Below are positions 2,891 to 6,605 of a DNA stretch of 22,996 nucleotides, piece by piece. The translations under genes and the position numbers were made by a program. Location: the IMG/VR virus record IMGVR_UViG_2698536401_000001, one strand, 5' to 3'. The stretch is from a virus (Duplodnaviria; Heunggongvirae; Uroviricota; Caudoviricetes). Within the stretch, counting starts at the first letter, position 1. The number at the start of each line of letters is the position of its first letter. The notes under the pieces are model-generated. The model saw only the letters and a list, made by a program, of their open reading frames with translations, ran no database searches and was not told the origin of the DNA.

Positions 2891-3243
2891 TACGCCTCCG
2901 ATGTAACAGTCGTTATTCCATAAAGAGTGTCGATTTCAGCGGAAAACATGACACGTCGGGTCGTGGTATCCACCGTCGTATTGAAAGAGAGGATTGATTT
3001 AACGCCCCGCGTTTCGAGGATGCGCTTACGGATCGCCAGGTTGTAGGTTTCCGGCTTCTGCTTACCGAGTACGGACTGGATCCACGGAGTCCCCTCAGTG
3101 GTGTCGAGAAACCATTGCCCATACCACAATTCGAATCGCGTTTTTACCGCCTGCGCCACGGCCTCCGGTGAGTTAATCAGCCAGGTGTCATCACCGCTGC
3201 CAAAGGTGTAATCGCCAACGGCGTCTTCACGTCTGTATCGCAT
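2890..3243 (-). CDS. baseplate assembly protein (gpW/gp25-like)
   Basis: 117 aa ORF between the spike and baseplate J genes, the canonical position of the small gpW/gp25-like wedge protein. Confidence 0.45.
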   Translation of the reverse strand: MRYRREDAVGDYTFGSGDDTWLINSPEAVAQAVKTRFELWYGQWFLDTTEGTPWIQSVLGKQKPETYNLAIRKRILETRGVKSILSFNTTVDTTTRRVMFSAEIDTLYGITTVTSEA

Positions 3244-3998
3244 CAGTTAGGCGCTCCTGTGTTACCGCCGCCGGTCTGTACTCCGCCGTGCGTGTGCGTC
3301 ATCAGGCTCTTACCACCAGCTTTTACATCGTTAGTCACCGTGACAGGGCCAAGCATCGTCGCGGTGCCGCCGCTTTCGCCCATCCCCTGAGAAAGATTCC
3401 CGTTTATTGTCACGTTGCCGTTTAGCGTGATGGTGGGTGATGTGATCGTGGTTCCTCCTTCTGCTGTCGCCGTCAGCGCGCCGGGGGTTTGAACCGTGAT
3501 GTTATGGCCTGCGGCCACTTCCACAAACGCAGCGCCATCATCAGTACGCAGTTGCGCGGCGCTGGTGCTGATTCCGCTGATTTTCTGCGCCTGCGACTGG
3601 GGACCTACAATACAAAACGCATCCGATAAATCATGCATTCTGTCATCAACAGGCTCCTGTATTCCGCCGTTCTGCCACCAGAAATCAATACAACGATCGG
3701 CAAAAATCACCAAACATTCATCACCGGCTTTAACCGGGAACGTTAGCGTGCATCCTCCGCCGCGCGGGAATACCACTGGCACATCCACCAGCAGCGGGTA
3801 ATTTTTGGTAACGCGATTGCCGTCGTTATCCGTTTCAACCGAACGGATAGAAGGCTGCACAACCGCCGTCACAGCGTCAGGATCGAATGACTGGACGATG
3901 CCAGGCAAAGCGACTCGGATCTGGTTCTTTGTTGTTTCCCGTTCAGATTTGAATGTTTCAGCAAGGTCGCCGCTGCGGGTCTGGTCAGATACTGCCAT
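3243..3998 (-). CDS. baseplate central spike protein (gpV / Mu gp45-like)
   Basis: 251 aa with Gly/Thr-rich repetitive C-terminal half (TITSPTITLNGNVTINGN...THTHGGVQTGGG) typical of spike proteins. ATG at 3996-3998 preceded by GGAG. Confidence 0.55.
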   Translation of the reverse strand: MAVSDQTRSGDLAETFKSERETTKNQIRVALPGIVQSFDPDAVTAVVQPSIRSVETDNDGNRVTKNYPLLVDVPVVFPRGGGCTLTFPVKAGDECLVIFADRCIDFWWQNGGIQEPVDDRMHDLSDAFCIVGPQSQAQKISGISTSAAQLRTDDGAAFVEVAAGHNITVQTPGALTATAEGGTTITSPTITLNGNVTINGNLSQGMGESGGTATMLGPVTVTNDVKAGGKSLMTHTHGGVQTGGGNTGAPN

Positions 3999-4010
3999 TT
4001 AGTAGGCTCC

Positions 4011-4043
4011 AGAAAGCAAAAAACCCGCCGGGTGGCGGGTTTA
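4011..4043 (-). terminator. rho-independent terminator closing the inserted cassette
   Basis: Minus-strand transcript reads UAA-ACCCGCC-ACCC-GGCGGGU-UUUUUUGCUUUCU: a 7 bp GC-rich stem (plus 4023-4029 with 4034-4040), 4 nt loop, then a U-run. It overlaps the stop codon of the 4041..4457 gene. Confidence 0.6.
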
Positions 4044-4457
4044 TGAATCGTAGGTTTTCAATTTTTCGAGTTCATCAGGAGGAAGTTCTATGAAGGTTTC
4101 CTCTGCTAATTTTATCAGCCGGGGAAGCATCGAATCAGCTTGCTGATGAGCGTTTGGGCTGATGATTGCCAATATCTGATAGTGTTCATCGATATAAAGA
4201 TGCTGAGCATATACCAAAAAATTATCACATGTCCGTTCACTCAGAGATGCTTCTGGAGGCCAGGGTTTATCGCCAGGTAGCTTTAAGTGAATTTTCCTGA
4301 TGTTGGCAGCCATCGCATCATAGTTACGTTCAAAACCGCCTAACGAACCAAAACACCAGAACTGGGAACCCTTTGAAATATAATCGGCAAGCATTTGAGC
4401 ATACTTATGTGCTGCAGCTAAATGACGCAATTCTCCCGTGATACTGACTTTTGCCAT
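4041..4457 (-). CDS. YafO-family toxin-like protein (putative ribosome-dependent mRNA interferase)
   Basis: 138 aa. Segment IRKIHLKLPGDKPWPPEASLSERTCDNFLVYAQHLYIDEHYQILAIISPNAHQQ...LIKLAEETF aligns by eye to the E. coli YafO core as I remember it (IHL, P-PP, S-RT-D, LVY-Q, DE, LAI, P-H, AE-F). ATG lies 1 nt after the upstream gene's stop. AT-rich relative to flanking genes. Confidence 0.55.
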   Translation of the reverse strand: MAKVSITGELRHLAAAHKYAQMLADYISKGSQFWCFGSLGGFERNYDAMAANIRKIHLKLPGDKPWPPEASLSERTCDNFLVYAQHLYIDEHYQILAIISPNAHQQADSMLPRLIKLAEETFIELPPDELEKLKTYDS

Positions 4458-4458
4458 G

Positions 4459-5031
4459 TCACATCCATTTAGGGGCGTCGGCTCCCAGCATCTTATGCGA
4501 TGTTGAGATCAGTTCAATCGCCTCTTCACGGGTAACATTATCTGACAAGAGTTCAGCCTGGAAAGGCTGCGATTGCCTAACTTCAGCGGCCAACTGAGTT
4601 GCAGTGTTCTCGACGGCGGTCAACGCACGAACATATTTGCGTTTTAATGGGCGCAACATTTGCAGATGGCCTTGCCACATAGGGGACCTTTCCGCTTCAG
4701 AGAACATATCCACTAAATGTCCTTTAGCATTTCGGCATGCCTTGGCAAGACCTTCGAGATGGGATAAAAACCCTTCCGGAAGCTCATCAACAATGATTCT
4801 TCCATTTCGAAAAGCTTCGAGATGAGACATGCCTTCCTTCGCGGTATTTTCGATTTCTTGAGCGCGTGCAGCAATCGCGGTACAACGACGAAATGCCTCT
4901 TCAGCATCTAATCGTTGTGGCAGTTCACAAGCATTAGAGATCAGGGGTTTGAAAGCACCGTTAACAGCTTCCTGAACCTGATTCATTTGTTGTGTAATTG
5001 TTGCCAGCGCAAATGCGTAGCTAATCGCCAT
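4459..5031 (-). CDS. hypothetical protein, upstream partner of the YafO-like gene (candidate antitoxin/regulator)
   Basis: The track ORF begins at a TTG (5037). The first in-frame ATG is 5029-5031, preceded by AGAGGGA 7 nt upstream, giving about 190 aa. Stop TGA is separated by 1 nt from the downstream ATG. No family recognised from the sequence. Confidence 0.5.
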   Translation of the reverse strand: MAISYAFALATITQQMNQVQEAVNGAFKPLISNACELPQRLDAEEAFRRCTAIAARAQEIENTAKEGMSHLEAFRNGRIIVDELPEGFLSHLEGLAKACRNAKGHLVDMFSEAERSPMWQGHLQMLRPLKRKYVRALTAVENTATQLAAEVRQSQPFQAELLSDNVTREEAIELISTSHKMLGADAPKWM

Positions 5032-5037
5032 ACCCAA

Positions 5038-5199
5038 TCCCTCTGTCGTTTTAAACGACTATACACCACTTATTCAAAGTTAGCTGAGCGCTAAAAGTTC
5101 GCAAAGTTTAGTGATCATGCAACCACCTAGCAAGCGATAAAAAATCATTATTTAGTGAATGTGAACAAACTCAACACTATGCAGAAATGTAACTTTTGG
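5038..5199 (-). promoter_or_regulatory. AT-rich intergenic region, putative promoter for the two-gene cassette
   Basis: 162 bp non-coding AT-rich spacer inside an otherwise tightly packed operon, directly upstream of the cassette. Contains a TATAGT -10-like hexamer and TTGCTA/TTGCAT -35-like hexamers on the minus strand. Exact promoter not resolved. Confidence 0.3.
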
Positions 5200-5541
5200 T
5201 TAACCAGAAACCTTTTTACACGGGAAAGAGCCGATGATTTTCGGCGCATCCATGCTGTTCTGCAGCAGTTGGACGTTCAGGAAGCGCGTTTCGGTACCCG
5301 GACGACGAATGTATTCAAAGCCGTAGTTGTTGCCGTCTTTGGCAGGCATTAGCCCCATATCAATCTTAATGCCATCAGCACCAAGATTTGTAATTTTCTG
5401 AGATGTGACGCGTTCACCGTTAATCATGTCCATTTCCCCCAACCTTGCAGTGATGGTGTAAGGTCCACAATAAGCGGTGTAACCGCTTGCAGATGCCCCA
5501 AATGACATAAAGGCAACAATTAAAATGGCTAAGGCTTTCAC
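5200..5541 (-). CDS. small Sec-exported protein with N-terminal signal peptide (moron candidate)
   Basis: 113 aa. N-terminus MKALAILIVAFMSFGASA|SGY is a classic signal peptide with an A-S-A cleavage site. Two Cys in the mature part. The start is a GTG preceded by GGGGGT, 2 nt after the hub gene stop. Confidence 0.5.
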   Translation of the reverse strand: MKALAILIVAFMSFGASASGYTAYCGPYTITARLGEMDMINGERVTSQKITNLGADGIKIDMGLMPAKDGNNYGFEYIRRPGTETRFLNVQLLQNSMDAPKIIGSFPCKKVSG

Positions 5542-5543
5542 AT

Positions 5544-6605
5544 TTACCCCCGGTTAAGCGAGTCCTGAGTGCGGAGATCCGCCGCGCCACGCGCTTCGCA
5601 CATCATATCCATGTACCACGCCAGGCCCCTTGTATCGCCAGTGTACATAATCCCGCGCACAATATAAACGCCATCCGTTGCGATGCTGGCAGGCTGCGAT
5701 GTGGTGCCGCTTAGCGTGATATTTCCATCCGTGTTCTGGTCGGTGATCTGACCACCAGCCATCGCAATATCGTTGTTCGACAAGGCGGTACGATACACGG
5801 AAGCCTGATCCAGCTGAATGAGTCCGTTAACCCGGATGTTCGGATTAATAAGCGCGCGGACGTTTACGCCGTTACCGATAGTCTGCTGCGGCATGCCAAT
5901 AAGCCCGGTAGCGCTGTTGAGCACAATCGCTTCATGAACATATTCGTTATTCTCCACCATCTGGCGTTGACCGTCCACGAATTGCCATGTTGCGCCACAT
6001 TGACCGGCTACGTTATCCATAAGATGCCGCGTCATGCCAAAGAGTACCCGCCCCCGGGGGAATACAGTAGCAGGCATTTCAGGCGTCAGGCCTTCGGTCG
6101 CGCCTTTGGCTTCGAAGTCTTTCATCAGCGCACGGTTCACATCAGCGACCGTGTAACCGGCAGCCAGCGTCTGTGAGGTTATACTGGTGGCAAAAGCCAG
6201 ATCAGTATCTGCTGCCTGAATCAGGACGTAGGTATCAACCGGACTGTCTTTTCCTGTGACCGAGTAGCGAATTTCACCGCTGAAAATCAGTCCGTAGTTG
6301 CGGCCATCTCTCTGGCCCACGTCCGCCGCGTCAACTTCCCGCACGGTCCCTACGTCGCTTGCTGACACCTCTGGCGCGACACCGTCGTAACCGGCAATCA
6401 GACGCACTTTCGAAAATTCCTGCCCGGTGATTCGGTTCACAGTATCTGCCGAGAGGTTATAAATTTTGATAGTCCCTACCCGGGACGCGCTGCTGATGTT
6501 GAACCAGTCGATCGTAAAGGTGACTTTGAAATCACTTAGCTCAATTCCCTGACCGTTCCCGTCCACAAGCTGCAGCTCGAAATGTCTCATCCAGTTCTGT
6601 GACAT
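5544..6605 (-). CDS. baseplate hub protein (P2 gpD / Mu P-like)
   Basis: 353 aa ORF at the hub position, downstream of the tape measure and two small tail genes. Call is from size and synteny. Confidence 0.45.
   Translation of the reverse strand: MSQNWMRHFELQLVDGNGQGIELSDFKVTFTIDWFNISSASRVGTIKIYNLSADTVNRITGQEFSKVRLIAGYDGVAPEVSASDVGTVREVDAADVGQRDGRNYGLIFSGEIRYSVTGKDSPVDTYVLIQAADTDLAFATSITSQTLAAGYTVADVNRALMKDFEAKGATEGLTPEMPATVFPRGRVLFGMTRHLMDNVAGQCGATWQFVDGQRQMVENNEYVHEAIVLNSATGLIGMPQQTIGNGVNVRALINPNIRVNGLIQLDQASVYRTALSNNDIAMAGGQITDQNTDGNITLSGTTSQPASIATDGVYIVRGIMYTGDTRGLAWYMDMMCEARGAADLRTQDSLNRG

Follow-up and report, generated by a model that had tools for sequence, protein, structure and literature searches.

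Which protein would restrain a YafO-family toxin when a gene other than yafN stands upstream of it is the question raised by a two-gene cassette in the IMG/VR virus record IMGVR_UViG_2698536401_000001 (Caudoviricetes; one strand of 22,996 nucleotides, this whole stretch being referred to below as the window). YafO is among the least understood toxins of the RelE superfamily, and comparison of the YafO family profile with the PDB returned no solved structure. In the window, a gene for a 138-residue protein of this family follows directly on a gene for a 190-residue protein of an uncharacterised family. We consider that the two probably form a toxin-antitoxin module resembling type II, in which the antitoxin represents a new family and which travels as a moron in a temperate phage. 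The cassette consists of the following elements:

4041..4457, minus strand: toxin gene, an open reading frame of 138 amino acids with an ATG start
4459..5031, minus strand: partner gene (putative antitoxin), an open reading frame of 190 amino acids from an ATG
4455..4461, minus strand: gene junction TGA-C-ATG, read directly from the sequence, with the partner stop at 4459-4461, the toxin start at 4455-4457 and a gap of 1 nucleotide

The coordinates, sizes and junction put forward in an earlier description of this DNA from its letters and open reading frames (the sequence-only reading) are correct, as judged from the open reading frames and from the sequence itself. For the partner, an in-frame TTG at position 5037 would give an alternative form of 192 residues; the 190-residue form is the one found in the RefSeq annotation, where the two products are labelled "type II toxin-antitoxin system YafO family toxin" and, for the partner, "hypothetical protein".

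The 138-residue protein matches the Pfam family YafO_toxin (PF13957) with an E-value of 4e-17 and a score of 62.6 bits (the curated gathering cutoff is 25 bits), over profile positions 12-98 of 101, and in BLASTP it is 25% identical to YafO of Escherichia coli K-12 (E=5e-7). The YafO-family match that had been predicted for a profile search on 4041..4457 was thus obtained. In the NCBIfam equivalog model for YafO (NF007377), the protein scores 31.4 bits and remains below the cutoff of 153. Judged by sequence, it is a member of the YafO family and not an equivalent or orthologue of K-12 YafO. It belongs to a distinct clade of 136-142 residues, with an acidic C-terminal extension (residues ~123-138). 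The predicted fold is of the RelE/HigB type (BECR), with a model pLDDT (predicted local distance difference test score) of 95.4, and the closest structural neighbours of the model in a structure search are the toxins HigB, HigB2, YafQ and RelE. Residues H57, R75, T76, L81, P101, H104 and E119 are common to the window protein and K-12 YafO. Across 52 diverse members of the YafO family, the canonical clade of 132-134 residues included, H57 and T76 are invariant, and R75, H104, P101, L81, V82 and G37 are at least 90% conserved. A putative catalytic role is assumed for H57, R75, T76 and H104. The description of the downstream gene as YafO-like with the conserved core residues of the family is therefore borne out by the profile match, the BLASTP comparison and the residue alignment.

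Related loci were gathered by exact-protein look-ups and pattern scans. In all of them (~60), the partner gene comes first and the gene of the YafO clade second, and the gap is 1 nucleotide everywhere except in Serratia marcescens, where it is 0; the close coupling claimed by the sequence-only reading is verified here and extends well beyond the window. The same order is kept where the partner is only 36% identical to that of the window and where the toxin is 43% identical to the window toxin. Two remote partner homologues (E~1e-4) also show this arrangement, with gaps between -1 and 2 nucleotides. The pairing of partner and toxin is far above chance. The two proteins have also diverged together: partner identities of 49 and 36% to the window protein go with toxin identities of 65 and 50%, respectively. 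The partner changes faster than the toxin, and faster divergence of the antitoxin than of the toxin is usual. The ratio of nonsynonymous to synonymous substitution rates (dN/dS) lies between 0.05 and 0.10 in the partner gene and between 0.015 and 0.05 in the toxin gene, so both genes are under strong purifying selection.

The canonical clade, with YafO of 134 residues, has a different neighbour. In a Klebsiella member and in K-12, the gene upstream of yafO encodes a protein of 97 residues of the Phd/YefM type, which confirms the pairing of canonical YafO with a 97-residue YafN of that family, as stated in the sequence-only reading. The YafO family therefore consists of two clades with two unrelated partners. 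The order antitoxin-then-toxin listed for PF13957, for which only work on YafN-YafO is cited (PMC11980606), matches the canonical YafO with its upstream 97-residue Phd/YefM gene. Together, the co-occurrence, the co-divergence, the clade-specific partner and the joint movement of the two genes (described below) give strong support to what appears to be an obligate two-gene module.

The partner itself is related to nothing that would label it an antitoxin. No significant Pfam match was found for the window protein, nor any consistent family when 30 members of its own family were scanned singly, and none of these 30 matches PF02604 (Phd/YefM). The NCBIfam search of the partner gave no significant match, and among the PDB sequences no significant relative was found, with either the single sequence or the profile. 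Direct comparison with YafN shows no similarity, and no DNA-binding domain is detectable, either by Pfam in the 30 members or by the structure search. The only assignment is to PHROG 35514, a family without known function. The AlphaFold2 model (pLDDT 77.5) is all-helical, with long helices at residues 3-31, 43-75, 88-115 and 123-154; a linker predicted with low confidence connects these to a short helix at 168-181, after which comes the C-terminal tail. A search of the PDB with this model returned only generic helical bundles (FlgN/FliT-like matches), and among predicted viral structures nothing significant was found. The partner family is small, with 36 clusters at 90% identity, and its profile finds 14 representatives among 1.84 billion representative proteins; the named members all come from Enterobacterales, e.g. 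Escherichia, Salmonella, Citrobacter, Klebsiella, Leclercia, Cronobacter, Serratia and Pantoea. Conservation is highest in a central M-F-x2-A-x2-S-x2-W block and in the tail S-H-x8-P-x-W-x, which are kept even in the remotest homologues. The statements that the partner is about twice the size of YafN, unrelated to it, and without a recognisable DNA-binding or Phd/YefM domain hold in full, and on the computational side the pair stands as the sequence-only reading had it, with a YafO match for one protein and membership of no known antitoxin family for the other.

The joint movement of the two genes is best seen from the place they occupy. The window belongs to a SEN34-like (Brunovirus-type) myovirus prophage and covers its tail and baseplate genes; the cassette lies in a variable slot of the tail cluster, in the interval between the baseplate hub gene and the spike gene:

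4042..5199, no strand assigned: variable cargo slot holding the cassette, between the gene for a 113-residue protein (5200-5541) and the spike gene (3243-3998)
L002 3141-3563, L003 3160-3672 and L004 3223-4023: other fillings of the slot in SEN34-like phages, which with the cassette makes four unrelated fillings

Backbone homology to SEN34 and vB_EcoM-606R2 stops at 4041/4042 and restarts at 5200. In the same slot, unrelated genes are found in SEN34 (140 residues, membrane-anchored), vB_EcoM-606R2 (170 residues) and Yersinia phage YP3 (266 residues). The G+C content of the slot is 44-46%, compared with 53-57% in the flanks. A query consisting of the slot and its flanks matches 285 E. coli genomes, 37 of them with the cassette; these 37 (out of 5,426 complete E. 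coli genomes) always carry it on the chromosome, at an identity of at least 98.7%. In IMG/VR, 46 viral contigs carry the cassette, compared with 3 of 185,579 species-representative genomes, a distribution that is mostly viral.

Elsewhere, homology to the cassette is limited to positions ~4000-5140, that is, to the two genes and a leader of ~100 nucleotides upstream of them. Counting the window, the unit is found in at least five unrelated contexts:

Myovirus slot between hub and spike genes (the window)
Siphovirus tail clusters, adjoining the tape measure gene (Pantoea, S. marcescens and a metagenomic Flyfo siphovirus)
The nin (early) region of a lambdoid Klebsiella prophage
Immediately upstream of the type I restriction-modification operon hsdRMS in Serratia
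Beside a transposase in a metagenomic JGI contig

This comparison of sequences indicates that a unit of ~1.1 kb moves as a whole, with its own predicted promoter, between unrelated prophage cargo slots.

To examine the leader that travels with the genes, 13 distinct versions of it, from cassettes in different genomic contexts, were aligned, and three elements can be recognised:

5105..5133, minus strand: promoter-like element, with -35 TTGCTA at 5133-5128, a spacer of 17 nucleotides and -10 TAAACT at 5110-5105
5080..5102, minus strand: inverted-repeat half-sites (candidate operator), with GCGAA at 5102-5098, TTAGC at 5094-5090 and GCTAA at 5084-5080
5045..5059, minus strand: short inverted repeat GTCGTTT-A-AAACGAC, which borders the Shine-Dalgarno sequence on its 5' side

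In all 13 leaders the TTG of the -35 element is invariant, as are the T-A-x-A-C-T positions of the -10 element (TAAACT or TACACT). The promoter-like element agrees with the sigma-70 consensus at 8 of 12 positions and is not listed by the promoter scanner, which gives a second site at 5174-5147, beyond the conserved cassette. The half-sites lie just downstream of the -10 element, overlapping the predicted transcription start, and are conserved across contexts; in one lineage (L045, L048, L054) they take the symmetric form TTATC-N5-GATAA. In stability, the leader RNA does not exceed its shuffles (z=0.27), and no Rfam family is found in the window. The conserved leader features are accordingly read as candidate protein-binding sites and not as an RNA element, a site in DNA being the likelier reading of the half-sites. 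On the same two grounds, a riboswitch or an RNA antitoxin of type III-like kind in the leader is rejected. In the short inverted repeat next to the Shine-Dalgarno sequence, the outer arms GTCG/CGAC are invariant in the 13 leaders, and the inner pair is T-A, A-T or T-G.

From these features the following mechanism can be proposed. The module would be transcribed in the lysogen from its own promoter. The 138-residue protein, when free, would act as a YafO-family endoribonuclease of RelE fold that cleaves mRNA and so stops translation, and the 190-residue helical protein would be its cognate neutraliser, supplied in fixed proportion through translational coupling. The partner would most likely inhibit the toxin through direct binding, and contact is suspected for its conserved C-terminal helix and tail (S178, H179, W189); the four-helix bundle may then serve as a scaffold for dimerisation, regulation or sensing. 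The likeliest benefit to the prophage would be exclusion of superinfecting phages by abortive infection, retention of the prophage, or both.

Several points weigh against this reading. Toxicity, neutralisation, binding mode and biological role are what we infer, and the way in which partner and toxin bind is a guess. The partner is called an antitoxin from its gene order and linkage, and as far as its sequence and predicted structure tell, it appears to have neither a DNA-binding domain nor similarity to any known antitoxin. In PADLOC-DB v2.0.0, neither protein of the cassette nor the 113-residue protein has a match at E<=1, so a defence function has no precedent in these models. The genes that fill the same slot in SEN34, vB_EcoM-606R2 and YP3 have no Pfam or PADLOC match and no known defence annotation, and on present evidence there is no ground for regarding the slot as a hotspot of defence genes. 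One related locus, L064 (6001-6573; IMGVR_UViG_2875262337_000001), carries a partner gene with a deletion of 1 nucleotide and, 170 nucleotides further on, an insertion of 1 nucleotide in an A-run, which leaves ~55 codons out of frame, with stops, beside an intact toxin gene. The locus is otherwise 99% identical to L058. This broken partner is probably a homopolymer sequencing artefact; if it were a real allele, it would argue against an essential antitoxin.

Within the toxin-antitoxin reading, the cassette might be a dedicated anti-phage abortive-infection system in which the partner is both antitoxin and sensor; we regard this special case as possible, on the unlikely side. A protein of the invader would bind the partner, or the partner would be degraded or displaced, and the released RNase would shut translation down before the infection cycle is completed. 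The company of the cassette fits such a role, as prophage accessory slots also hold small lipoprotein morons and a type I restriction-modification system directly adjoins it in Serratia. Further points for it are the size of the partner, double that of YafN, its faster evolution relative to the toxin, and the cassette's own promoter, which makes expression in the lysogen possible. However, no PADLOC model matches, the searched literature contains no report of a defence phenotype, the partner dN/dS of 0.05-0.10 does not point to diversifying selection, such as sensors often show, and sensing is not implied by size alone. The indications of a defence or sensor role are circumstantial, and the most far-reaching version, namely that the 190-residue protein founds a new antitoxin family and senses phage infection, which would make the cassette an unrecognised prophage-borne abortive-infection system on a YafO-type RNase, seems rather doubtful to us. 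A pure addiction or stabilisation module, which kills segregants that have lost the prophage and has no anti-phage role, is likewise viewed with doubt. In its favour, type II modules on mobile elements classically play such a role, and the cassette occurs almost solely on prophages, with a single occurrence on a circular, phage-like Shigella replicon of 41.7 kb. Yet an integrated prophage gains little from post-segregational killing, and the cassette is also found in a chromosomal restriction-modification neighbourhood. By sequence alone, addiction and defence are inseparable; the cargo slots and the restriction-modification neighbour favour defence.

Two other explanations depart from the toxin-antitoxin reading altogether. 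The partner could be a chaperone or adaptor, for instance one that loads the toxin onto the tail tip as an injected effector, an idea prompted by the position of the window cassette between the baseplate hub and spike genes and also by the FlgN/FliT-like helical-bundle matches of the partner. The cassette has no tie to any tail component, since other copies lie in the nin region of a lambdoid prophage, close to the tape measure genes of siphoviruses and next to hsdRMS. It carries a promoter of its own, and the terminator-like hairpin that directly follows it is common to the phage backbone. On the strength of the non-tail contexts, the tail-loaded effector with its chaperone was rejected, and we give the whole idea hardly any credence. 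That the YafO-like protein is a degenerate, non-toxic remnant, the function of the pair being unrelated to toxicity, could be argued from the 25% identity to K-12 YafO and from the score below the NCBIfam equivalog cutoff. The most conserved residues of the family are kept, though, purifying selection is very strong and the fold is predicted with very high confidence, which makes a remnant quite improbable.

With the toxin-antitoxin reading retained as the favoured one, the closest known system is YafN-YafO of K-12 (dinB-yafN-yafO-yafP). The toxins of both fall in PF13957 and share the same conserved His, Arg, Thr and His residues, and in both the gene in the antitoxin position comes first, the toxin second, with tight coupling. 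The window toxin differs in being 25% identical and in belonging to the separate 136-142-residue clade with a C-terminal extension; its partner is a helical protein of 190 residues, whereas YafN is a 97-residue protein of the Phd/YefM type; and while yafNO of K-12 follows dinB, the window pair lies in a prophage tail-cluster slot with its own promoter. With HigBA, DinJ-YafQ and RelBE (RelE/ParE BECR superfamily) the cassette shares the toxin fold and the bicistronic layout, but the antitoxins of those systems carry ribbon-helix-helix, helix-turn-helix or Phd domains, none of which is detectable in the window partner. Prophage toxin-antitoxin modules are known to act in phage exclusion, with the antitoxin element sensing infection, as in CapRel-SJ46. 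Like that system, the cassette is accessory cargo of a temperate phage, and its neutraliser exceeds the expected size and might conceivably act as a sensor. CapRel-SJ46, however, is one fused chain with a toxin of the RelA/SpoT type; here there are two proteins and a toxin of the RNase type.

The ribosome dependence of YafO is still debated (PMC11980606). The type II toxin YafO has been found in 16 genomes of P. aeruginosa prophages (PMC12066637), and among the partner clusters of YafO_toxin in E. coli only 8% are known antitoxins (PMC10790755). Neither of these two surveys (PMC12066637, PMC10790755) defined, characterised or named the partner family described here. In the literature searched, no paper names these RefSeq accessions or this pairing, or defines or tests this partner family; within that literature, the strict correspondence between clade and partner and the mobility of the unit are reported here for the first time.

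The comparison defines a clean second branch of YafO, always accompanied by an uncharacterised partner family, confined to prophages and islands of Enterobacterales, and moving as a unit of 1.1 kb. Antitoxin exchange among toxin families is a well-known theme, and if the pair is confirmed as a toxin-antitoxin system, it adds a new antitoxin fold to this mix-and-match repertoire. It would also provide a compact system (138 + 190 residues) for studying how a YafO-type toxin is inhibited and triggered, and a way to ask whether the cargo slots of phage tail clusters are reservoirs of exclusion systems. Should the partner prove to be a sensor, the cassette would give the first structural and mechanistic model of how a YafO-family toxin is restrained; should it be an addiction module only, it would be a routine addition to the catalogue.

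Further elements are associated with transcription around the cassette. The first is found directly after the toxin stop:

4021..4042, minus strand: strong intrinsic-terminator-like hairpin with T-run; stem of 9 base pairs, 6 of them G-C, then TTTGCTTTCT

The backbone homology with SEN34 and vB_EcoM-606R2 runs through this hairpin, which is located just ahead of the spike gene, within the late tail operon. Late transcription must accordingly read through it or restart after it. In the divergent cassettes of Pantoea and S. marcescens, a G+C-rich hairpin with a T-run stands between the upstream region and the ribosome-binding site of the partner:

L005 ~5960-5990, L007 ~5930-5985, L014 ~4380-4415 and L061: leader hairpin, for example GCCGAAG...CTTCGGCCTTTTTGTC

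This leader hairpin might be an attenuator or the terminator of the preceding phage gene.

The gene next to the slot (5200-5541, minus strand) encodes the protein of 113 residues mentioned above, which has a signal-peptide-like N-terminus (MKALAILIVAFMSFGASASG...) and belongs to PHROG 3443, a family with no assigned function. Its sequence suggests that this product of a tail-cluster gene is secreted or periplasmic. The gene is kept just downstream of the baseplate hub in SEN34, YP3 and vB_EcoM-606R2, whatever the cargo, and a role as third component of the cassette was rejected, as the gene is part of the conserved phage backbone and present with any cargo.

The Shigella replicon mentioned above, L072 (NZ_CP012733.1, 'plasmid unnamed' of Shigella flexneri 1a strain 0228), is circular, 41,686 bp long, and carries the same baseplate genes together with the cassette. 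It is typed as a non-mobilizable plasmid, and the IMG/VR contig L033 is also 41,686 bp long. L072 has the appearance of the circular genome of a SEN34-like phage, which would be a phage-plasmid or else a prophage after excision.

In two of the siphovirus contexts (L005 7063-7359 and L073 5112-5453), the cassette lies beside genes for small lipoproteins, which are BamE/SmpA/OmlA-like and have a lipobox signal. Such lipoprotein genes are typical prophage morons, and their presence here suggests a shared hotspot of accessory genes near the tape measure gene.

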